Source: Bacteriovoracia bacterium (GTDB taxonomy: Bacteria; Bdellovibrionota; UBA1018; JBFWNL01). From it: a stretch of 64,000 nucleotides of DNA. The notes below the pieces were generated by a model. The model saw only the letters and a program-made list of their open reading frames with translations. It was not told the origin of the DNA and did not search any database. Where the stretch lies: NCBI GenBank assembly GCA_050251055.1, contig JBFWNL010000002.1, positions 64,001 through 128,000 on the forward strand, in the 5' to 3' direction. Position 1 is the stretch's first letter, and every line of letters starts with the position of its first letter. This document shows positions 14,574 through 51,271 of this stretch, piece by piece. A program made the translations under genes and the position numbers.

Positions 14574-14727
14574 AGTTTTAATAGTAAATCCGAACGGATT
14601 TTACATAGAGCGTTATCCTACTTAGGTGATCTTATAGGGTCTCAACTGCAATGATCGCACTTTTGTAAAAAGAGCCAAAATCAGCGAAAAACTCAGTCTC
14701 CACGCGGACCTAACGCAACCCTAACAA

Positions 14728-39730: not shown

Positions 39731-41626
39731 ATGCAAAGGATTCAACTCCTCCCCCCCACGGTAGCCGAGCGCATCGCCGCCGGCGAAGTGATCGAAAGAC
39801 CCGCGAGCGTCGTCAAGGAGCTCGTAGAAAATGCCCTCGATGCCGGGGCGACGGAGATCGCCGTCATCCTGAAAGACGGCGGGCGGGAGCTCATCGAGAT
39901 CATCGATAACGGGTCGGGGATGGGCAGGGAAGACCTTGCCATCAGCGTGCTCCGGCACGCCACGAGCAAAATCCGATCGCTCGACGACCTAGAGCAAATC
40001 CGCACGCTCGGTTTCCGAGGCGAGGCATTGCCGAGCGTGGCCGCGGTTTCCCAGATGAAGATCGTTTCCCGCGCAAAGGGCTCGGATACCGCATACGAAC
40101 TCGATGCTTCGGCGCCGACTTCGTCCCAAAATCCCGTCGCGGTCACCTTCGGTCACTTCCTGGGATCCGAGCACGGTAGCGCGATCAAGGTCGAGTCGAT
40201 TTTTTCGCAAATCCCGGCCCGGCTGAAATTCCTCAAGGCGCCCGGCGCCGAAGTCTCCTTCGTGCGCGACTGGCTGGAACGCTTGGCCCTCACGCGCCCA
40301 GACGTGGGCTTTCATTTTTCCCATAACGACAAGAGCCTATTCCGCCTGCGCCCCCAGACCCCCGAAGAACGCATCCAACAAACGCTTTCGGAAGGCGACG
40401 ACTTGCCCGTGGTTTCCGCAGATTCCGCGAGCTTGGGCTCGGCGGTAGACATCCAGATCCGCGTGCGCGCCTACTGGCTGCACGGGTTCAGCGCGCCCCA
40501 CACGCGGCGACTGTACCAAGTCGTGAACGGACGCGTGCTAAAAGACCGCATGCTCCAACACGCGATGCTCACGCCGTTCCGCCAGGCGTTACTCCCCGGG
40601 CAGTTTCCCGCGCTTTATCTCAACATCGAGATCGACCCGAGCGAGCTCGATGTGAACGTGCACCCCACCAAGACGGAAGTGCGCTTTCTCCACAATTCCA
40701 AGGTTTATCACCTCGTCCAATCGACGCTGCAATCGTTGGTCATGAATCATGGGGCGCCCTCGATCGTCGCGGGGCCGCGCGCCTGGGTAAATGCGCCGGC
40801 GCCAAACCCCGCTCTCTCCGGACCTTCACCGCGCGTCCCGACGGGCTTCGCCGGTAAGGCTTCTAACTTTGGTGACGCCGGATATTCCGGGGCGCTTAGC
40901 CCAGTGCTTCGCGCGAGTGAATGGCGGCCCGCCTCGATGGAAAGCGCCCAGGAAACGATTTCATTTACTGCGGAGCCGCCCGCTACCGCCCTCGGCGCGC
41001 CCCCGAATCCGCTGCGAGAATTCTTCCGCCATGCCCACTACCAAGGCGTGATTTTTCGCACTTACCTGCTTTTTGAAAACGAAGCAGAACTGGGAATCAT
41101 TGATCAGCACGCGGCGCACGAGCGGATCCGCTTTGAACGCCTAAAGCGCGGCGCGTTCGGCAATACAGGAGAAGGCGTGGAACGCCAGGCCCTGCTCATG
41201 CCGGAGACCGTGAGTTTACGTACGGAGGACCGGGAAAAGCTGGAAACCCGCCTTCCCTGGCTGGAAAGCCTTGGGTTCGAGGCGGAAATTTTCGGCGAAG
41301 GCGCCGTACTTTTCCGTTCGGTACCCGCCGCTTGGGGCGCCGACGCCCTCAAGGCTCGCTTAAAGGCGCTGGTAGAGCGCGTGCTGGAAACCGAAACCAC
41401 CGAAGCGGGACCGCTGGCACTCGACGAGCGGCTGTTCGAAAAACTGGCGAGCGAAGCCTGTCATTCAGCCATTCGCGCGGGCGACCGGGTAGAGCCCGTG
41501 CAAGCCCGCGCGCTCGTTGACGAACTTTTCGCTTGCGAGCATCCCTGGAATTGCCCGCACGGTCGCCCTACGATCGTGAAAATCTCCGAAGCTCGGATCG
41601 AGGAATGGTTTCACCGCCGCGTCTAG
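39731..41626 (+). CDS. mutL: DNA mismatch repair endonuclease MutL
   Basis: IAAGEVIERP, GFRGEAL, DQHAAHERIRFE, ACH, CPHGRP. Confidence 0.97.
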   Translation: MQRIQLLPPTVAERIAAGEVIERPASVVKELVENALDAGATEIAVILKDGGRELIEIIDNGSGMGREDLAISVLRHATSKIRSLDDLEQIRTLGFRGEALPSVAAVSQMKIVSRAKGSDTAYELDASAPTSSQNPVAVTFGHFLGSEHGSAIKVESIFSQIPARLKFLKAPGAEVSFVRDWLERLALTRPDVGFHFSHNDKSLFRLRPQTPEERIQQTLSEGDDLPVVSADSASLGSAVDIQIRVRAYWLHGFSAPHTRRLYQVVNGRVLKDRMLQHAMLTPFRQALLPGQFPALYLNIEIDPSELDVNVHPTKTEVRFLHNSKVYHLVQSTLQSLVMNHGAPSIVAGPRAWVNAPAPNPALSGPSPRVPTGFAGKASNFGDAGYSGALSPVLRASEWRPASMESAQETISFTAEPPATALGAPPNPLREFFRHAHYQGVIFRTYLLFENEAELGIIDQHAAHERIRFERLKRGAFGNTGEGVERQALLMPETVSLRTEDREKLETRLPWLESLGFEAEIFGEGAVLFRSVPAAWGADALKARLKALVERVLETETTEAGPLALDERLFEKLASEACHSAIRAGDRVEPVQARALVDELFACEHPWNCPHGRPTIVKISEARIEEWFHRRV

Positions 41627-42579
41627 AACAGCGGGAAACGCTAGGGCCCGTCCCGTCCGCTCCCATCGTCATCCTTACCGGCCCCACTGCCGCGGGCAAG
41701 TCTCAGCTGGCGGCCGACTTGGCCGCCGAACACGGCCAAATCGAGATCGTGAATGCGGACAGCATCTTGGTCTACCGCGGCTTCAACATCGGGTCGGCTA
41801 AACCGGACGCGACCGAGCGCCGAGGGGTCCCTCACCATCTCATCGACGTGCGTGATCCGAGCGAAGCGTTCACGGCCGGAGATTTCGTTCGCGACTGCGA
41901 GCGTCTGTTGAGCGAGATCGCGACGCGTGGGAAACGAGTTCTCATCGTAGGCGGCACGGGATTTTACCTGAAGGCGCTGTTATTCGGCCTCTGGGAAGTG
42001 GCGAAGGCCGATCCGGAGCTCCGCAAACGCGTGGAAGCGCGCACCACCCGCGAGCTATACGATCAGCTTTACGCCGTCGACCAGGAGGCGGCGCTCCGCA
42101 TCTCCCTCGGCGACCGCTATCGGTTGGTACGGGCGGTGGAGATTTGGGAGTCTACGGGCAAGACGCCCTCCTCGCTCGAAGCCGAAGCGGAGCGACGAGG
42201 TCCCGACCCACGTTACCAAATCTGGCTGGTCGACCGGCCAGCGGCCGAGCTCAAAAACCGCATTCGGACGCGCACTCGCCAGATGCTTCAAAACGGATTT
42301 ATCGAAGAAGTTCGCTCCCTCAGCCAAAACTTTCCCGGCGCGCGCTCGTTGGGAGCAGTCGGCTACGCGCAGGTACTCGAGCACCTCGCCGGTCGAACGC
42401 CCGCCGGGCGGAAGGTCCAGCCGGGCCTACCAGGACTGGAGGACGAAATCGTGCTCGCCACCCAGCAGCTCATCAAGCGCCAGCGTACCTGGTTCCGCTC
42501 CCAGACCCAGGCACGTCGATACGAACTACCGGCCGACGAAGCCCGCTTGCGCGAAGACTTCTGGAAGGTCTACAAATGA
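41605..42579 (+). CDS. miaA: tRNA dimethylallyltransferase
   Basis: GPTAAGKS, NADS, IGSAKP, VGGTGFY, KRQRTWF; follows mutL. Confidence 0.95.
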   Translation: MVSPPRLEQRETLGPVPSAPIVILTGPTAAGKSQLAADLAAEHGQIEIVNADSILVYRGFNIGSAKPDATERRGVPHHLIDVRDPSEAFTAGDFVRDCERLLSEIATRGKRVLIVGGTGFYLKALLFGLWEVAKADPELRKRVEARTTRELYDQLYAVDQEAALRISLGDRYRLVRAVEIWESTGKTPSSLEAEAERRGPDPRYQIWLVDRPAAELKNRIRTRTRQMLQNGFIEEVRSLSQNFPGARSLGAVGYAQVLEHLAGRTPAGRKVQPGLPGLEDEIVLATQQLIKRQRTWFRSQTQARRYELPADEARLREDFWKVYK

Positions 42580-43723: not shown

Positions 43724-43917
43724 GCTATCCCTCCGCACTATTTACAAACCGGCTAACCCAACCAGTTCAATCACCTTTAGACCCCTCTAAAGGATTAATT
43801 TTATAGACATTTTCGATACCAACCGGAAGTGTCCGAAAGGTTATCCAAAGACGCCTTCAATCGGTGAGAGATTAGCAAATTCCGTGCTGCATCGCAGCGG
43901 CAATGCCCGCACTTGCC

Positions 43918-45027
43918 TTAAATAGCCATCTGGGCGGTCAAAATAATGAGGCGGCCAGGTTCCGCCAGGGCCGTCGTCGCCATCCGCGGCGTGCCGCTCG
44001 AGGTCGTCATATCGTAGAGGTGGGCGTACGCCAGCTGCAGCTTCACATTGTGTTTGCTCAAGAAGCAATTCACCCCGAACCATAGCGCGGTTCCGGAAAG
44101 CCCGCCGTCGGCGTTCGGCGTATAGCGCTCATAGCGAAACACCGGTTGCATGAGACCCGACACCGTGTATCCAGCCTCGCCGGCGTACCCGTAGGAAGAT
44201 ACCTTCACGTCATTGGTCGTGTCGTCAGCCGCGGAAAACTCGAAACGGATCATCTCGGCATCTCCATTCCAGCGAACGTTGGCCCCATACCGCGCGTCTT
44301 GGCCGAAACGAAAATCCTTCGCCGCCAGAAAACCGCCCACATTCAACTTATCTAAGAAGGTGACGTCGGCGCGAAAGCTCACATCCTTCGCCGTATTGGT
44401 GTCTTCGGTATTGGGACGGCCACCGTTGGAGAGCATCCAGCCAAACCGCCACGGCTTAGGCTTATAAAAAACCTGCAATCCCATTTGTCGTTGGTCTCCC
44501 AACGTGCGCGAAATCAGCGATCGTTCGGGCAGCGTCAGTTCGGAAGAGGAATCGAGGGATTCTTGCACCGTCAGGATCTTCATCTGGCCGATTACGAGCT
44601 CGACTTCGTCGGACAGAAGAAAGCCCAAGTTTAGATCCTGCAAGACTTTGTTGTCGTTCGTCGACGAAACGGGCCCCGACGACAAGGACTTCGCCGGGTC
44701 GATCATTACCGTCCACCGCGTGCTCTCGGTGATCGCACCGCTCAGTTTGAGTTCCGCGCGGCGTATCCGAAAGTTATTGCTAACGGCCGGTGTCGTGGAG
44801 TCACTATAAAACCAGCTCTGTAACAGTCCATTGAACTTCATCTTTCCCTTCCCCACCTCGACAAATGCGGGGGAAGCGGGAGCGGCCGCCGAAACGGATG
44901 TCGCCGTAGGCGAAGGGGTAGCCGCAGGAGCCGGTTCTGCCGCCCGGGCCGCCCCGGAGTAAACCAGCAAGGCCATACTCATTTTGATGAGGGTAAACGT
45001 CTTGAAGGAAGTGAGCGTCCGTTTCAT
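43918..45027 (-). CDS. OprO/OprP-like (phosphate-selective) porin
   Basis: Signal peptide; FRIRRAELKLSG, GQMK, LPERS motifs; beta-barrel pattern. Confidence 0.75.
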   Translation of the reverse strand: MKRTLTSFKTFTLIKMSMALLVYSGAARAAEPAPAATPSPTATSVSAAAPASPAFVEVGKGKMKFNGLLQSWFYSDSTTPAVSNNFRIRRAELKLSGAITESTRWTVMIDPAKSLSSGPVSSTNDNKVLQDLNLGFLLSDEVELVIGQMKILTVQESLDSSSELTLPERSLISRTLGDQRQMGLQVFYKPKPWRFGWMLSNGGRPNTEDTNTAKDVSFRADVTFLDKLNVGGFLAAKDFRFGQDARYGANVRWNGDAEMIRFEFSAADDTTNDVKVSSYGYAGEAGYTVSGLMQPVFRYERYTPNADGGLSGTALWFGVNCFLSKHNVKLQLAYAHLYDMTTSSGTPRMATTALAEPGRLIILTAQMAI

Positions 45028-45039
45028 GCGTCAGGTCTC

Positions 45040-46272
45040 CTAGAGGTAATAGTGCAAAGTGAACCATAGGACGTTGGCGAAGTCAGCCGAAACGGCATGA
45101 CTTCTTTCGCGACGACCGATAGCCGAAAATTCCCAGTGGGGCCGCGGAAAGTATTGCAGACCCAACCCGTAGTTGTCGCGAGAATAGCTGCGGGGCGAGC
45201 CCGCCACCCTCGCGTACTCTTGGGTGACGAATGCTTGTACGCCGCGCGAAAACTCCCACCCGGTCTTCGTCATTTGCGTACCACCGCTGCCTAACGCATC
45301 CGCATACGTCGCATTCAACTCAAATAGCGTGTAAACCGTGCGGCTCCAGCTAAAAATCGCGTAAGGTCCGACGAGCCAGCGCCGCGTGTTGCTCGCGGCA
45401 TTAGTCGCCTTCCCAGTATAGATGTTCCCCCCAAGCTTGACTCGGTCACTCACCGCATGACCGGCTTGCAAGGAAAATCCTTGCTCCACGCCTAACTGCG
45501 GATTGTCCGGCCGCCCCATCACCACGGTCGCGTGCACTTGGGTGTCGGTCGTAAAATAAGTGAACTCAACGTTATAGGTTTCTTGTTCCTCAGCGAAGCC
45601 CATCAAACCACGCGTGAGCATCGTCGGTTCGTCGATCTGCAATCCGTAAGCATAATAGAATCGGCCGACCCGCAGCTGGTATCGATCGAGTTCTCCCTGG
45701 CCGCCCTCGGGCCCCATCTTCACCGAAAGCCAGTGACGACGGCTGATCAAATAGCTCAAAGGACTATCTGCGGCGGCGTTGCCGTTGGGCTCGGAGCGGC
45801 CCAAGGTGCCCACCAAGGTAAAGCGCTTCCCATCCGTAATGGCGGCCTCCAGATCCAATCGCATCACCAGGAAACGTCCCGTCACCGCGGAAGGCGTGTC
45901 TTCGATCAACTGCCGGAAGCGCAGATTTCCTCCCAGTTGCAGCCAAGCGGGGGTCGAAACTGCTCCGTAAAGAAAACTTTCCTCGCGGGACTCCTCCGAA
46001 GCGACAAGGGGGGCCGGAGAACCTCCCGTATCAAGGGTCTCGGGCCCTTTTTCGAAGAAGAAACGTCCGTGAGAGATGATCTCCTTAGAGAGCACACGGC
46101 CATGCTCGGACAAAAGGCCGCCTCCCGTGACGCTGACGTGGCAGCTCGAACAGTTTCCGTACCCGTACCGGGTCATTTCCGGATAGGCTCTCGCCTCGCG
46201 AGACACGCCTAAAAGGGCGAGCCCCACCGCGGCACCCACAAACCAGCGTAGGGAAAAGCGCGTCGATCCCAC
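45040..46272 (-). CDS. Monoheme cytochrome c-beta-barrel fusion (Cyc2-like architecture)
   Basis: Signal peptide then YPEMTRYGYGNCSSCH...LSEHGR; barrel motifs RVGRFYYAYG, GLQYFPRPHWEF, LHYYL. GTG start at 46272 overlaps the upstream TAG (ORF track start 46296). Confidence 0.7.
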   Translation of the reverse strand: MGSTRFSLRWFVGAAVGLALLGVSREARAYPEMTRYGYGNCSSCHVSVTGGGLLSEHGRVLSKEIISHGRFFFEKGPETLDTGGSPAPLVASEESREESFLYGAVSTPAWLQLGGNLRFRQLIEDTPSAVTGRFLVMRLDLEAAITDGKRFTLVGTLGRSEPNGNAAADSPLSYLISRRHWLSVKMGPEGGQGELDRYQLRVGRFYYAYGLQIDEPTMLTRGLMGFAEEQETYNVEFTYFTTDTQVHATVVMGRPDNPQLGVEQGFSLQAGHAVSDRVKLGGNIYTGKATNAASNTRRWLVGPYAIFSWSRTVYTLFELNATYADALGSGGTQMTKTGWEFSRGVQAFVTQEYARVAGSPRSYSRDNYGLGLQYFPRPHWEFSAIGRRERSHAVSADFANVLWFTLHYYL

Positions 46273-46913
46273 TATTTCATCCCTTGGAGAATCCACTCCG
46301 AGAGCGCACGGCGTTCGTCATCCAATAGCCGCGGCAGCGGTAACGCCGGCATGTCCGCGCGGACCACGGTACGGTCGAAAATCAGCGCGGCCTTCGCGCG
46401 AACTTCATCGACGTTACCGAGATCCAATTTCGCCTCTGGATTGGGTTGAGAATGACATTCAAGACAACGCCTTTCGATGATCTGGGTACGCACCAGCTCC
46501 CAGGTATAAGGCCCCGTCTTCAAGACCGGGTCAAGCGGCGTGGTCGTACCCGCCGAGGCCTCGCGGGGAGCGCCTTGGGCGATCCACGCCACCAGCACTT
46601 GGGCTTCCTCCGTCGAAAGCGGTCCCAGGGGTGAGGGCCCGGCAGGCGGCATCGTCCTTTGCTCCAATGCCCGGGTCTCGATGCGGCCCAGGTTTTTTAA
46701 CACGGAGGGGTAGGTTTCTAGGTTCAACGAGCCTTGATCGCCACCGGCTCCACTATGACAGCTCAGGCATTTCGGAACCAGGACTCGCTCCCACACCTGG
46801 TTAAATCCCACGGGCGTGGTCTGCGCCGCTCCTCCGGAAACCCTCGGTGTCTTGTCATAGTGAAATCCACATCCACAAAACAAAGCCACGGCTATCAAAA
46901 TAAAATTTTTCAT
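46272..46913 (-). CDS. Diheme c-type cytochrome lipoprotein
   Basis: Lipobox FCGC; CLSCH and CLECH, each followed by an MP distal-ligand motif and W-I-x-QG. Confidence 0.8.
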   Translation of the reverse strand: MKNFILIAVALFCGCGFHYDKTPRVSGGAAQTTPVGFNQVWERVLVPKCLSCHSGAGGDQGSLNLETYPSVLKNLGRIETRALEQRTMPPAGPSPLGPLSTEEAQVLVAWIAQGAPREASAGTTTPLDPVLKTGPYTWELVRTQIIERRCLECHSQPNPEAKLDLGNVDEVRAKAALIFDRTVVRADMPALPLPRLLDDERRALSEWILQGMK

Positions 46914-47491
46914 GGCTTTAACACCGTTTCCACTTCGACATCAACTTGCTTGGCCACCGTAATCCCGGCAAAGCTCGGCACGCCGATTTCGAAATCATCT
47001 AATTGAACCGAAAACCTCGCCTGCACTCGCCAGGAAGGCGCGGTAGCGCTCACCTTCAGTTTTCCACTCACCGGCTTAGTCACTCCATGCAGCTGCATGA
47101 ATCCCTTGAAATCGCCTTCGGTGCCTAGCTTCAGCTCGCTCTTCATGATCCAAACTTCCGCGGTGGGATACTTCGCTAAAAGCAGGTACTTCTCTTGTAA
47201 ATGCCGATTGCGTAACGCCAGCCCCGTATCGAGACTCGCCAGCATGAACTTAAAGCCGCCTTGCACGGTCAGCTGATCGCTCCCCTGAGGGCCAGACGGC
47301 TCAATGCCTAGCTGACCTTCGGGGCCCTTGCCGCGGCCAACGATCTTCATGGCGCTCGGATTACCAATCGCGAGAAATCGCACTTCTCCTTGTTCTGAAT
47401 TCGCTACGAATTGGGGGACGGCCGAGTAACCCGCCGGTCCGAAGCACGCAGCGAAGAGCGTCCCCACTAACCAAGAAAAACCAATTCTCAT
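46910..47491 (-). CDS. YceI-family protein
   Basis: LDTGLALRNRHL, KYPTA, LHGVTKPV; signal peptide. Confidence 0.88.
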   Translation of the reverse strand: MRIGFSWLVGTLFAACFGPAGYSAVPQFVANSEQGEVRFLAIGNPSAMKIVGRGKGPEGQLGIEPSGPQGSDQLTVQGGFKFMLASLDTGLALRNRHLQEKYLLLAKYPTAEVWIMKSELKLGTEGDFKGFMQLHGVTKPVSGKLKVSATAPSWRVQARFSVQLDDFEIGVPSFAGITVAKQVDVEVETVLKP

Positions 47492-50193
47492 GCCGCACCT
47501 TCCTTCGGAGTCTCGGCGGAATTTTCCGGAGGCACCGACGGCTGGGGTTCGTTAGGAAAGATGCGCTCACATTCGTCGTTACCGGGCTGCCATCGCCCTT
47601 CGCCGGCCTCCCGCAGATACTGGAAGATCGCCCAGCCCGCATTGTAAGCTGCCCGGTCGGCCCACTCTTCCACGATTTCGGGATAAAGCGGCTGGAGCGT
47701 TTCGGGGTCGAACTTTAACTTCGGGTCATCCACGCTGCGGTTATCGATGAAGCAAACATCCCGGAAAATTTCGTGATCCGGAAAATTCGTCGACGAGGCT
47801 TTCTCCGGGGAAATCTGGCGCAGGCACTTCTCCCGAACCTGGTTCAACATCTGGGCACCATGCTTGCCGACGAAGTTCGAGGCTTCCGCCGGGAACTGCA
47901 CACGTGTCCCTTCCATCGCCATCCAAATGAGATAATTACCACCGAGGTTACGCACGGCACCGCCCGCACCCCGCGAGTCAAAAGTCTTGAGATTCCGACC
48001 TTGGTTGCCGAACAACCCATCGATGAAGTTAGCCACGCGTACGCTGCCCCCCGACCAGTTCAACAGCCCCCGCGCGAGCGCCGTGTTCCCGTCCGCCCCA
48101 CTCCCGTGGCACTTCACGCAAGTGGTGCGATAATACCAGGATCCGGGCGTGGTCGAATAAACCTCCCCAAAGGGACGCTTCGGTCGGCCCTGGGCATTGA
48201 TCATCCAGGGACGCTGCTGCTCCTTCGGCAGATCGACCGTAGGAAATCGGCAGTCTTTTTTCTTGTTCCAATAACCCACGGGATAGGTCTTGGTGACCGC
48301 CTTTTGCAGGGTAGGCGTGAATTCCAGCTTACGATACTTCGGGGTCATGCCTTCGTCGCGATCTTTCCAATCCGCGCGCCGGGGCACGTAACGATCGCTC
48401 TTGGGCCAAGTGAAATCCTGGTCTACCCAGTCGAAGTCATCGTTCGACTTACATTCCGGCGCGAACCCTTCGGCCGCCGCGATGCTGCCGTACGAAAGCA
48501 CCCATTGACCGATGATCTTGAGCACCTTGCAATCGGGCGAGCCCGGCGTGTGCATCGGCATGCGGCTGGTGAGCCCCTGCGCCGACGGTGGGTCCGAAAC
48601 CTTGAGGTAAACGTGGCTCTGCGTGAGGTCGCCTTCGTGGTGTACGAACCGGCGCGTGGGGATCTGGGTCGAGCGGGTGTGAGTATTGAACTCGTAAATT
48701 TCTCCCGCACGCAGATCCAACGTCACCCCGTTTTCCTTCGTGAACGCGAATCCATTGGGGTTGTGGCAGTGGGCGCAGTTTCCCGTCATATAGGCCTGCG
48801 CCTTCACTTCGTAGATATTACGCGGATTCTTGGTCCCGACCCACTCTAGGCGCGGAAGCTCTTCGGCTCGCTGGTATCCCGAGATCAATCCGTACGCAAC
48901 GAAGCGCTCCGCCTGGCTCAACTCGGATTTTCCAACCGGATCTTCGCGACCCGCCTCGCCTTTTTGCCGACGATTCAGCTGCAGGGGCGTGAAGCCCAAC
49001 ACGAAGTTCTGGGTTTCCGATCCCATGTGACACTCCACGCAGCGGTGGCGTCCGGGCAGGGCATACTTGCGTTGTTTTCCGGATTTTTCATCGACCGTGA
49101 GTTTAAAAATCGTGTCTTTGAAGGAGGTGCCGTCCCGATACGGAATTTCCACCAGGGTCGCGAACTGCTCTGATTCATCCCAGCGGTAGCTACCGAATAA
49201 GCTCTTGGACCAATCCTTGCGCGCAACGATGATTCGGGTCTCGACCCGACGGTAGCGTGGCTTGCCGTTTTTCATCTTCACCAGCTTGTAAAACGTCTTA
49301 TAGAAGCGGGTGAAGTCGGGAATATCGAACTGCTTTTTAAGGGGATCGTAAGTAATGGTTTGGCGGACGAGCTGGCCGTCTTCGATCTTCATCGGGACGT
49401 GAATCCAACGGCCCTTCTCCGCGTTGTCCGCCCAGAGCGGATACTCGACGTTATAAGCGAGCGTGCCTTTCTTCGCGAGTTCGTATGCATCCAGTGTGAA
49501 CATATCCGTGTCGGTCAAATTCGGTGGAAGCTTCTCGGCCTGCGCGAAGAATCGGTCTTTTCGATAGTCGAAACCTACGCTTTCAGGCGCAGGAATGCAG
49601 TCACCGAGCTCGCTCGTCTGCAGCAGCTGGCTGGGATCCGGTAGTGGGGGCGCCCCCGCGGAGCCGGGCATCGGAAACGAGCCGTCGGGCCTACCGGCGG
49701 CTACCCAGGCTTTTAGGTTTTCCGCAATCCGCAAAAAAGCTTCCGAGTTTCCGCCTCGCCGATCTTCCGGTGGCATCCGGTTGTCGGAGTTTTCATCCAC
49801 CATGGCGGCGATGATCTGCTCGACCGTTTCGGAAAGCCCTGGATAAAACTGGGTCGTGCCCCCCACCGTCAGCTCCTGGCCGACGTGGGAGTCGGTGTAG
49901 GTAAAACCGCCGGTTTTGCTGGGCACGCGGTGACAGCTCGCGCAGGCTGAATTGACCGCGTCGCGGACGTCATTAAATGACATCATTCCGCCTTGCTTCA
50001 AACCCAAGTAGGGTGTCTCGGGAATGCGCCCCGCGGTCTCCACGGGGGCGCAGAAACGTTGCTTCTCGGTCGCGCCAACGATCAGCTTGGGTTTATTCGT
50101 GCAACCCGTGGAAATGCCGAGGGCGGCGGCCAGCCCAAAGCTGACCACCGCCCCGCTATCCATAAATTTATGGAATAAGCCTCGGCGTTTCAT
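47488..50193 (-). CDS. Large tetraheme c-type cytochrome lipoprotein with SO2930/HNE_0200-like core
   Basis: ATG 50193, lipobox STGC; CASCH, CVECH, CAHCH, CVKCH; YPLWADNAEKGRWI and AYMTGNCAHCHNP motifs. Confidence 0.75.
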   Translation of the reverse strand: MKRRGLFHKFMDSGAVVSFGLAAALGISTGCTNKPKLIVGATEKQRFCAPVETAGRIPETPYLGLKQGGMMSFNDVRDAVNSACASCHRVPSKTGGFTYTDSHVGQELTVGGTTQFYPGLSETVEQIIAAMVDENSDNRMPPEDRRGGNSEAFLRIAENLKAWVAAGRPDGSFPMPGSAGAPPLPDPSQLLQTSELGDCIPAPESVGFDYRKDRFFAQAEKLPPNLTDTDMFTLDAYELAKKGTLAYNVEYPLWADNAEKGRWIHVPMKIEDGQLVRQTITYDPLKKQFDIPDFTRFYKTFYKLVKMKNGKPRYRRVETRIIVARKDWSKSLFGSYRWDESEQFATLVEIPYRDGTSFKDTIFKLTVDEKSGKQRKYALPGRHRCVECHMGSETQNFVLGFTPLQLNRRQKGEAGREDPVGKSELSQAERFVAYGLISGYQRAEELPRLEWVGTKNPRNIYEVKAQAYMTGNCAHCHNPNGFAFTKENGVTLDLRAGEIYEFNTHTRSTQIPTRRFVHHEGDLTQSHVYLKVSDPPSAQGLTSRMPMHTPGSPDCKVLKIIGQWVLSYGSIAAAEGFAPECKSNDDFDWVDQDFTWPKSDRYVPRRADWKDRDEGMTPKYRKLEFTPTLQKAVTKTYPVGYWNKKKDCRFPTVDLPKEQQRPWMINAQGRPKRPFGEVYSTTPGSWYYRTTCVKCHGSGADGNTALARGLLNWSGGSVRVANFIDGLFGNQGRNLKTFDSRGAGGAVRNLGGNYLIWMAMEGTRVQFPAEASNFVGKHGAQMLNQVREKCLRQISPEKASSTNFPDHEIFRDVCFIDNRSVDDPKLKFDPETLQPLYPEIVEEWADRAAYNAGWAIFQYLREAGEGRWQPGNDECERIFPNEPQPSVPPENSAETPKEGAA

Positions 50194-50203
50194 ATCGGCG
50201 ACC

Positions 50204-51049
50204 TTAGTCGATCGTGTAGAACTCGTGGTCTTGCACGATCGGATCCAAGAAGGAGCGATCCAGCAGGTTCTGCAGGAGCTTTTCTTCCACTTCCTTGGTC
50301 TTGGTCTTGGTCTTGTCGGTCTTCGCGTCGACCGCTTCGTAAACGTAGAGCTTACGAGCCATCGGGTAGCTAAAGTCACGAACCGTCTTCACGTTCGCTT
50401 CCACGGCCTTGGCTTCGGCGGTGGCGGCCAAAGGCACGGCGCGATTGCCATCACGCTTACCGGAAGCGCCCGAGTAACCGATCGCATCGGCGTCCTTCGA
50501 GGTTTTTTCGGCGATGTCGGCGGTCTCCGCGAGCACGGTGACGCAGTTGCCGAACTTCTTGATGGCGGTGAAGTGCTTAAATGCGTCGGTCGTGCCGGAC
50601 GCGTCGTTACGGCGGTAAACCGTGATCGTACCCGCCTTGCCGGAACCGGCGACCTGCTCCCACTTCGTGATCGTGCACTCGAAGATGGCCTTCACCGTCG
50701 GCAGATCCATGCGGGCGATCTTATTGCTGCCGTTGACGAAGATCGAAAGCGCATCCAGGGCTACGACGTGACCCACGAGCTTGATGCCTTTCTTCGCGGC
50801 CTGATCGGCCACTTCGGGCTTCGCTTCGCGCGACATCGGGGCGATACCTTGTTCTTCGTTAGCGAGGGCAAGCTCGCCCTTGCCGCTGCCGCCGCCCAGG
50901 TAAACAATTTCTTTTTCCATACCGGCCGCGTTGATGGCGTCGGTCATGACGCCGGCCAGGGTGTCCGAGCCTTGGAACGGCACGGGAGCCGCTTGCGCCG
51001 TACCCACGGCGACCACGAGGCTTGCCACTAAGAGATTCAGTTGGTTCAT
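50204..51049 (-). CDS. PstS-family phosphate-binding protein
   Basis: GAGGAG RBS, signal peptide; QGSDT, GGGSGKG, MSRE, RNDASGT, DAIGY, YPMARKLYVY. Confidence 0.85.
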   Translation of the reverse strand: MNQLNLLVASLVVAVGTAQAAPVPFQGSDTLAGVMTDAINAAGMEKEIVYLGGGSGKGELALANEEQGIAPMSREAKPEVADQAAKKGIKLVGHVVALDALSIFVNGSNKIARMDLPTVKAIFECTITKWEQVAGSGKAGTITVYRRNDASGTTDAFKHFTAIKKFGNCVTVLAETADIAEKTSKDADAIGYSGASGKRDGNRAVPLAATAEAKAVEANVKTVRDFSYPMARKLYVYEAVDAKTDKTKTKTKEVEEKLLQNLLDRSFLDPIVQDHEFYTID

Positions 51050-51271
51050 TTTTCTTCTCCTCAAATCAAGATTGGTTTCTCACTACCGCGCCTTTGTACG
51101 GCGGATTCCCGCGACGTTGTTTTAGGTTTCCGTTATGCGCTCTTGTGGGTTTGGTGAGCTTGGTAAGCGACCGTAATGCATGGCATTATCCCTCGGCAAG
51201 GTCTTCACCGCCGCGAAAAATGGGCGCTATTCAGTGGAAAATCCCGGCCGCTCCCGCTACACCTGAACGAC

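Follow-up and report, generated by a model that had tools for sequence, protein, structure and literature searches.

A candidate phosphate-linked operon pairs a PstS-like protein and a tetrahaem cytochrome with a Cyc2-like outer-membrane barrel in Bdellovibrionota

Most environmental phosphate is locked on iron minerals, and the known microbial routes for its release are acids, chelators and secreted redox shuttles; in work by McRose and Newman from 2021, Pho-regulated phenazines reportedly free phosphate from iron oxides. Electron-carrying systems of the outer membrane are known from other settings. Porin-cytochrome conduits consist of a multihaem protein threaded through a 26-strand barrel, and Cyc2 is defined by a signal peptide, a single CxxCH with AxPxFAR[Q/K][T/Y] upstream and PxL downstream, a length of at least 365 amino acids and a 16-strand barrel resembling OprO/P; characterised Cyc2 proteins oxidise Fe(II) (Keffer et al., PMC8406198). 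The mature N-terminus of Cyt572 is given as YPGFARKYNF (PMC13741234). ExtI, a Porin_O_P member encoded in the Geobacter ExtHIJKL cytochrome cluster, is tied to selenite and tellurite reduction and did not respond to phosphate (PMC5877670). Here we describe a six-gene cluster from a Bacteriovoracia bacterium (assembly GCA_050251055.1) that brings a PstS-like phosphate-binding protein together with exported cytochromes and a Cyc2-like barrel. The cluster lies in a 64,000-nucleotide stretch of contig JBFWNL010000002.1 (positions 64,001 to 128,000 of the forward strand), hereafter the window, to which all coordinates refer unless stated otherwise. We tentatively propose that it encodes a phosphate-starvation-induced iron redox conduit that feeds a docked phosphate-binding protein.

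All six open reading frames (ORFs) are on the minus strand and tightly packed. From 5' to 3' they encode a PstS-like periplasmic binding protein (50204-51049, 281 amino acids, with a signal peptide), an orphan in that it lacks a pstCAB of its own; a tetrahaem c-type cytochrome lipoprotein (47488-50193, 901 amino acids, CxxCH at residues 84, 385, 473 and 692); a YceI-like periplasmic lipid/polyisoprenoid-binding protein (46910-47491, 193 amino acids), which is an optional member of the operon in relatives; a dihaem c-type cytochrome lipoprotein (46272-46913, 213 amino acids, CxxCH at residues 49 and 150); a fusion of a Cyc2-like monohaem cytochrome with a 16-strand outer-membrane barrel (45040-46296, 410-418 amino acids, CxxCH at residue 49); and a companion outer-membrane porin, a remote member of Porin_O_P (43918-45027, 369 amino acids). 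The successive junctions are a 10-nt gap, a 4-nt overlap, another 4-nt overlap, an overlap of either 1 or 25 nt and a 12-nt gap. The fourth depends on the start of the barrel fusion, which is ambiguous between a GTG at 46296, a GTG at 46272 and a database call of 399 amino acids. An earlier note on this DNA, made from the sequence without database searches, had described six co-oriented, close-packed genes with seven CxxCH motifs; the coordinates, the junctions and the motif count (4 + 2 + 1, with no CxxxCH) bear this out. Export signals and lipoboxes of the products were judged by eye, and a Pfam and NCBIfam scan assigned cytochrome c families to both lipoproteins and no family to the barrel fusion. 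The genes flanking the cluster on both sides are on the opposite strand, so the six genes form a self-contained unit, which we take, tentatively, to be one operon joining two conserved modules.

Other genomes indicate that these genes belong together. We surveyed the tetrahaem family with a profile built from 30 homologues, admitting one genome per species, and compared the best 80 of the 244 loci obtained with the six window proteins by tblastn. Loci were grouped roughly, by tetrahaem identity and record title, and the denominators below count only loci with enough flanking DNA. Among Bdellovibrionota-type loci the PstS-like gene adjoins the tetrahaem gene in 47 of 48, usually across a gap of a few bases, and this adjacency spans lineages in which tetrahaem identity is 40-64%. 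A failure of the PstS-like protein and the cytochromes to be co-conserved had been named in the earlier note as grounds for abandoning its idea; the two genes instead travel together. In the 34 Bdellovibrio-type loci the PstS-like gene is adjacent in 28/28, a dihaem gene lies downstream in 24/24, a YceI gene is present in 13/24 and the barrel fusion in 21/24, which means that both modules are joined in 21 of 24. In the 22 loci of the Silvanigrella/Oligoflexia type, the PstS-like gene is again adjacent (19/20, one downstream), and dihaem, barrel fusion and YceI genes are all absent (0/15 each). The remaining 24 loci, of the Myxococcota type and others, hold a weaker PstS-like match anywhere in the locus in 12/22 and no dihaem or YceI gene; a barrel fusion occurs within 5/20, four of them not directly downstream and several on the other strand. 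As judged by the same order recurring in dozens of other genomes, the six-gene arrangement is far beyond chance. No pstCAB was noted beside the PstS-like gene in the 80 loci, which were searched by tblastn with the six proteins and not for pstC.

The downstream half of the cluster has a life of its own within the order to which the window's organism belongs. Matches to the barrel fusion occur in 21 of 40 genomes of this order (22 of 41 with the window's own), and by tblastn the match adjoins a YceI and/or dihaem match in 12 of 14 loci. YceI is present in most of the stand-alone loci, and none of the 14 contains a PstS-like, tetrahaem or Porin_O_P match at E <= 1e-4. The tetrahaem protein gave weak partial matches only, in 5 of the 40 genomes. 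By its gene neighbourhoods, then, the window is a fusion of module A (the PstS-like protein with the tetrahaem cytochrome) and module B (the dihaem cytochrome, an optional YceI and the barrel fusion).

Two further observations concern the arrangement of these genes. The genes mutL and miaA adjoin both the cluster (window 39731-42579) and a stand-alone dihaem-YceI-barrel trio in the same order (locus L018, 8820-14000), so that module B has apparently occupied this site for longer than module A. In five Polyangia/Myxococcales-type loci (L099, L101, L104, L109 and L111), a relative of the barrel fusion is encoded 3-8 kb away from the tetrahaem homologue. The two have opposite orientations in four of these loci and the same one in L111, a second arrangement that links both families.

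The PstS-like protein is a clear member of PF12849 (PBP_like_2; 6.7e-25, 88.8 bits against a Pfam cut-off of 27) and scores below the NCBIfam PstS cut-offs (TIGR02136, 128 against 206.6 bits; TIGR00975, 27.9 against 205). Its closest solved structure is PstS of Pseudomonas aeruginosa (4pqj and 4omb, E about 6e-16), with which it shares GSDTL, PMSR and RNxxSGT in alignment, and the phosphate-motif residues are invariant across 33 members of the PstS-like family. The same 33 members have an invariant C-terminal tail, LLDRSFxDPIVQxHDFxTLD, that extends beyond the Pfam match. We regard the protein as a putative PstS paralogue that, by alignment, seems to keep the phosphate-binding motifs.

This tail lies at the predicted contact between the two products of module A. 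We modelled residues 21-281 of the PstS-like protein with residues 200-885 of the tetrahaem protein, and the complex scored 0.71 against 0.01 for the best control; the score mark used is reached by 58 of 80 solved complexes and by 2 of 110 mismatched pairs. The runs had at least 81% of their contacts in common, with a predicted local distance difference test (pLDDT) value of at least 84 for the partner. The modelled interface comprises residues 21-67 and the conserved tail 264-276 of the PstS-like protein, including the invariant D264, F267, D269, P270 and I271. Opposite these lie tetrahaem residues 510-542, 640-698 (around haem 4) and 773-873, with invariant W663, K672 and K694 around CVKCH 692-696. 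The contact is on the flank of lobe I of the PstS-like protein (residues 40-44 and the tail), away from the ligand cleft. We know of no solved complex of a PstS-like protein with a cytochrome, so that the predictor is unlikely to have passed by reproducing a known structure. The model lends support, short of demonstration, to binding between the PstS-like and tetrahaem proteins.

The middle part of the tetrahaem protein is an SO2930-type dihaem domain: residues 223-494 match TIGR03806 at 112.3 bits, against a cut-off of 313.3. An AlphaFold2 model (pLDDT 83.5, predicted template modelling score (pTM) 0.78) had no neighbour in the PDB at E <= 0.001 in a fold search, and the family profile matched only the generic CcoP haem motif among PDB sequences. 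Weak fold matches to cytochrome c'-beta/P460 (probability about 0.2) were not used. In a protein database the tetrahaem protein has 351 homologues at E <= 0.001; among the 120 listed, apart from the window's own entry, identity is 46-64%, and some are labelled Bdellovibrio or Pseudobdellovibrionaceae. On the function of the SO2930 family, the literature yielded only a network listing of SO2930. The dihaem lipoprotein matches PF13442 in two stretches, with no relative among PDB sequences at E <= 1, and the YceI-like protein matches PF04264 (4.9e-15, 56.6 bits against a cut-off of 23.7) and Escherichia coli YceI (1y0g, 2.5e-6).

The barrel fusion links the cluster to Cyc2. Its AlphaFold2 model, built from 46 sequences (pLDDT 88, pTM 0.84), has a small N-terminal domain followed by 16 strands, and Foldseek returned 16-strand porins, among which OprP (2o4v) ranked 19 with the top query template modelling (TM) score of the rows shown. 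The protein has a single N-terminal CxxCH, at residue 49, a signal peptide by eye (ARA/YPEM, the slash marking the cleavage) and 16 strands after the cytochrome domain, and its 410-418 residues compare with the minimum of 365 for Cyc2. The window sequence from the cleavage through the haem is ARA/YPEMTRYGYGNCSSCH, and the family consensus is A[FY]PEMVRHGYxNCxxCHxSPxGGGxLxxYGR. Where the strict Cyc2 motif is expected, the window reads AYPEMTRYG and the family AFPEMVRHG, so that agreement is confined to A, P and R and to the spacing; in place of PxL, the window has CSSCHVSVTGGGLL and the family CH.SP.GGG.L.

To compare the families beyond these motifs, we assembled a Cyc2 set from 120 metagenome stretches carrying the published motif, of which 80 came back as loci; from these we extracted 55 complete proteins, each 400-540 amino acids long. 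The two families aligned in hhalign at 95.1% (E 3.4e-8), and at 96.1% with signal peptides removed. A hidden Markov model (HMM) of the barrel-fusion family matches 52 of the 55 Cyc2 proteins and the Cyc2 HMM matches 20 of the 46 family members, with E-values specific to these small sets and best scores of 20-31 bits. As controls, 21 porins and 108 other secreted cytochromes gave no match to either HMM. The signal is limited to about 32-49 N-terminal columns. By these profile comparisons the haem domain makes the barrel fusion a divergent relative of Cyc2; the architecture is shared, and the sequence falls outside the motif by which Cyc2 has been defined. The earlier proposal of a porin-cytochrome unit is refined to a fused cytochrome-porin of a known, Cyc2-like kind. 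The nearest Atlas clusters of the barrel fusion are unnamed, the largest having 479 members, mostly Bdellovibrionota.

Related genes occur elsewhere in these genomes. The window's own genome (G000) has a divergent second monohaem-barrel paralogue with 24% identity (contig C15, 44582-45259 and 46513-46755), with a dihaem-like match 1.3 kb away, and a further dihaem-like match at C13:15463-15843. In locus L025 (G031:C52; 1-2675 and 9708-12417), two barrel-fusion genes stand in tandem, and ORFs with 15 and 11 CxxCH motifs lie some 7 kb away.

The porin that closes the cluster matches PF07396 (Porin_O_P) at 3.4e-17 over only 143 of 370 profile positions, has a weak NCBIfam match to ExtI (26 bits) and contains 20 Arg and 18 Lys, 38 together, against 47 quoted for OprP/O. 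A close relative occurs in only 3 of the 80 loci (tblastn). Nevertheless, a co-oriented ORF of 336-420 amino acids with a signal peptide follows the barrel fusion in 20 of the 21 loci with DNA there, and when these 20 and the window porin were scanned singly, 17 of 21 matched Porin_5 and 6 of 21 Porin_O_P. Since the occupants of this sixth slot are mostly Porin_5, a phosphate porin is not a conserved feature; by family assignment, the conserved element is a second porin. The OprO/P-type phosphate porin that the earlier note had placed as one of the two brackets of the system thus finds no support as a defining feature, and ExtI offers a precedent for a Porin_O_P member beside cytochromes with no phosphate response. 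A reading of the companion porin as a paralogue of the barrel fusion without its haem was rejected (hhalign 17%).

An 8-pair palindrome, CCTTTAGACCCCTCTAAAGG, lies at window 43774-43793, between the convergent porin and dehydrogenase genes, and may be a two-way terminator; the scan of the cluster for promoter and terminator consensus sequences gave, as a whole, counts not above shuffles and was uninformative.

A link to phosphate is suggested by the promoters. In Bdellovibrio-type loci, direct repeats of approximately TCCTAAC with an 11-bp period precede the PstS-like gene. A strict dimer, C[CT][CT][AG]AC-N5-C[CT][CT][AG]AC, is present in 13 of 48 upstream regions, at a density of 1.0 per kb 5' of the PstS-like genes compared with 0.003 per kb elsewhere in these loci, and has 24 matches in the whole of the window's genome. 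We built a scoring matrix from 12 of the relatives' Pho-box-like sites. It ranks the canonical pstS promoter of the window's genome first of 7.5 million positions (score 22.7), and among five such promoters from other carriers it finds sites at -69 to -88 in four (22.6, 17.3, 14.8 and 14.8); the fifth, belonging to a second pst operon, scores 4.2. Among held-out loci, 12 of 34 reach p <= 0.05, comprising 11 of 14 of the Bdellovibrio type and 1 of 20 of other types (L090). Because the repeats match those of the true pstS promoter, the operon is probably induced by phosphate starvation through PhoB in Bdellovibrio-type relatives.

In the window, the candidate Pho box CATAACGGAAACCTAAA (51121..51137, minus strand) lies 88 nt 5' of the start codon of the PstS-like gene and scores highest with the matrix within the 250 nt upstream. 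Its score of 10.4 is reached at 328 of 7.53 million genome positions, or 0.011 expected per 250 nt. A Pho box of the E. coli type (CTGTCAT N4 CTGTCAT, up to 5 mismatches) was not found 5' of the cluster. Pho control in the window's own genome is, on this footing, a possible extension of what the relatives suggest. The genome (3.77 Mb in 21 contigs, 93.5% complete) holds its canonical pstS with pstC and pstA on contig C1; pstC and pstA are outside the 64-kb window, and pstB and phoU were not searched for. It also encodes a cytochrome c assembly protein (PF01578).

Other repeats were seen in these regions. Three 9-bp periodic units, CTTACCAAG, CTCACCAAA and CCCACAAGA, stand upstream of the candidate Pho box, at about 51141-51167 on the minus strand. 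Elsewhere in the window, a Pho-box-like dimer, CCTAACGCAACCCTAAC (14709-14725, plus strand; score 16.7, the eighth best of the genome), precedes an ORF of 613 amino acids by 62 nt. Six Silvanigrella-type loci (L067, L069, L070, L076, L083 and L088) share the elements TTCACAAnnTTGTCAT and TGTGAAACGATTGTGTCA 60-130 nt 5' of the PstS-like gene; these may be another flavour of Pho box or may reflect only close kinship, and the Bdellovibrio matrix gives them no score.

The explanation that best accommodates these observations, which we regard as possible rather than probable, is as follows. Under phosphate starvation, a PstS paralogue without its own ATP-binding cassette transporter would dock on the C-terminal haem-4 domain of the lipid-anchored tetrahaem cytochrome. 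Module B, consisting of the dihaem lipoprotein and the Cyc2-like one-haem barrel of 16 strands with a plain porin beside it, would provide a short electron path to the cell surface, and YceI may serve as an optional carrier of a lipid or quinone, possibly of quinol. The haems, if loaded, would pass electrons to or from iron located at the outer membrane or immediately beneath it, and we favour the direction in which phosphate-holding Fe(III) is reduced. Freed phosphate would then enter through the companion porin, be bound where it enters by the PstS-like protein docked there and be handed to the PstCAB encoded elsewhere. Computation shows the order and co-conservation of the genes, their families and fold models, the Pho-box-like sites and a modelled complex that clears its controls; haem loading, which way the electrons run, the choice of iron and the transfer of phosphate are all as tentative as the scheme itself. 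A sharper version holds that the PstS paralogue is a stoichiometric subunit of the cytochrome, and that a starvation-induced machine alters the redox state of phosphate-holding iron through the Cyc2-like haem and captures phosphate at its site of release; this we consider doubtful.

Several points weigh against the proposed conduit. Known Cyc2 proteins oxidise Fe(II) (PMC8406198), which would make phosphate-binding Fe(III), the opposite of the favoured direction. Each module occurs without the other: a barrel fusion accompanies module A in 0/15 Silvanigrella/Oligoflexia-type loci, and in three of five whole genomes with only the PstS-plus-tetrahaem pair the barrel profile finds no match; modules that are found apart imply that neither needs the other. 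The cluster holds no inner-membrane quinol dehydrogenase, and the complex was modelled with tetrahaem residues 1-199 and all haems left out. The window porin has no match among PDB sequences at E <= 10, OprP and OprO included, and its sequence gives no sign of phosphate selectivity. As for control, the repeats had caught our eye on these very promoters before they were cast as a formal pattern, Silvanigrella/Oligoflexia-type promoters are not scored by the matrix, and the window's own candidate box is weak (10.4, against 22.7 for the pstS promoter of its genome).

The most direct competitor is iron oxidation of the Cyc2 type, in which Fe(II) would be oxidised at the barrel fusion and electrons would move inward to a terminal oxidase by way of the dihaem cytochrome, acting as Cyc1, and then the tetrahaem one. 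The PstS-like protein would belong here because the Fe(III) formed removes phosphate from around the cell, so that iron oxidation and high-affinity phosphate capture are co-expressed. We judge this unlikely. In its favour, the haem domain is homologous to Cyc2 and has the same one-haem, 16-strand architecture, the dihaem gene directly precedes the barrel fusion as in the known pairing of cyc2 with cyc1, and module B, as a barrel with dihaem and/or YceI, stands alone in 12 loci of the same order with no phosphate gene nearby. Moreover, Fe(II) oxidation is what Cyc2 proteins have shown in tests to date (PMC8406198). The window's barrel fusion, however, lacks the strict Cyc2 motif and PxL, and Pho-box-like promoters would be unexpected for an energy pathway. 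The PstS-like/tetrahaem pair also persists in lineages without any barrel fusion, and the carriers are, by record titles, mostly predatory or heterotrophic Bdellovibrionota.

That last pair could also be read as a periplasmic oxyanion redox enzyme, with the PstS-like protein as the substrate-binding subunit of a tetrahaem enzyme that oxidises or reduces an anion resembling phosphate, such as phosphite, arsenite/arsenate or selenite; product or electrons would be passed on, and the outer-membrane parts would import the anion and drain or supply electrons. The adjacency in 47 of 48 loci with predicted binding would suit this, as would the large conserved non-haem parts of the tetrahaem protein, which have many invariant polar residues and no solved relative. 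The weak ExtI match of the window porin points the same way, ExtI being tied to selenite and tellurite reduction (PMC5877670). Pho regulons, moreover, often contain genes for reduced phosphorus compounds. Yet the binding motifs match those of a true phosphate binder, Pfam and NCBIfam scans found no cofactor domain besides haem c, and the modelled contact is on the lobe I side and not at the ligand cleft; as a lead only, the SO2930-type domain is also fused to pyrroloquinoline quinone (PQQ) dehydrogenases, which fits an electron carrier. We hold an enzyme of this kind to be improbable. A still plainer account would be regulatory or positional hitch-hiking, in which the PstS-like protein is a second binder for PstCAB, the cytochromes are unrelated and there is no joint mechanism. 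Many bacteria do hold extra pstS copies away from pstCAB, and the two modules are separable; against this stand an adjacency kept in 47 of 48 loci despite 40-64% tetrahaem identity and usually across a few bases, a complex model that passes where controls remain at or below 0.01, and a conserved family-specific tail within the modelled interface. Taken with these, mere hitch-hiking seems very improbable.

If the sharper version of the proposal holds, proteins would here do what phenazines do in reductive phosphate mobilisation, and a solute-binding protein would for the first time be seen docked to a cytochrome, in a system widespread among predatory and freshwater Bdellovibrionota. An operon under Pho control in which a phosphate binder is connected to outer-membrane haems would amount to an enzymatic route dedicated to phosphate release, and would join two major nutrient cycles directly. 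A Cyc2-like branch in organisms not known as iron oxidisers, behind phosphate-type promoters, would also mean that Cyc2-like matches may not always signify lithotrophic iron oxidation. Because the carriers include, by their record titles, Bdellovibrio strains with complete chromosomes (loci L043, L053 and L074), the idea looks directly testable. The parts of the operon are of known kinds; what we did not find described is the way they are combined, the docking predicted between PstS-like protein and cytochrome, and promoters of the Pho type. A literature search found no description of such an operon or of a PstS-cytochrome pair, and within that search the earlier statement that no operon of this composition had been described holds. 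Searches for Cyc2 with phosphate terms listed no paper mentioning Cyc2, and none linking Cyc2 with YceI was found. The operon does not appear in the accessible parts of papers on Bdellovibrio with Cyc2, and one preprint, in the portion available, mentions electron-transfer genes in Bdellovibrionia with no detail.

Set beside described systems, the cluster resembles each in part. The PstS-like protein shares the PBP_like_2 fold family and the motifs GSDTL, GGSG, PMSR and RNxxSGT with PstS of the P. aeruginosa type of PstSCAB. It differs in falling under the NCBIfam cut-off, in having no adjoining pstCAB while its genome has a separate canonical pstS-pstC-pstA, and in being paired with a multihaem cytochrome on which it is predicted to dock. 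The tetrahaem protein is like the SO2930-family dihaem cytochromes (TIGR03806) in its domain match and in Atlas structural rows (TM 0.72-0.75, by row); in contrast to them, it scores below the family cut-off and carries the domain inside a 901-residue protein with two further haem domains. The likeness of the window porin to OprO/OprP is its Pfam Porin_O_P match, and full-length similarity is lacking: the profile match is partial, PDB sequences give no match, Arg and Lys are fewer, and Porin_5 proteins take its place in most related operons. With Cyc2 and Cyt572, the Fe(II) oxidases of Acidithiobacillus, Mariprofundus and Leptospirillum, the barrel fusion shares a mature N-terminus of the form A/[FY]P.[FM].R, a five-residue spacing from the Arg to its single CxxCH, [FY]GR past the haem, a signal peptide, a 16-strand barrel and a length of about 400 amino acids. 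The fusion family lacks the published motif and PxL, has three extra residues (GGG) past the haem and has a barrel that is not alignable with theirs by sequence, and no Cyc2 gene is reported from a context like this one, which combines a PstS-like protein, a tetrahaem cytochrome, YceI and a second porin. Finally, an operon of exported c-type cytochromes with outer-membrane barrels is common to this cluster and to MtrCAB, MtoAB/PioAB and the Geobacter Pcc and Ext clusters. Those conduits have no known PstS partner, and whereas the Mtr, Mto and Pcc types are built on a large barrel of about 26 strands, here a single haem is fused to a barrel of 16.

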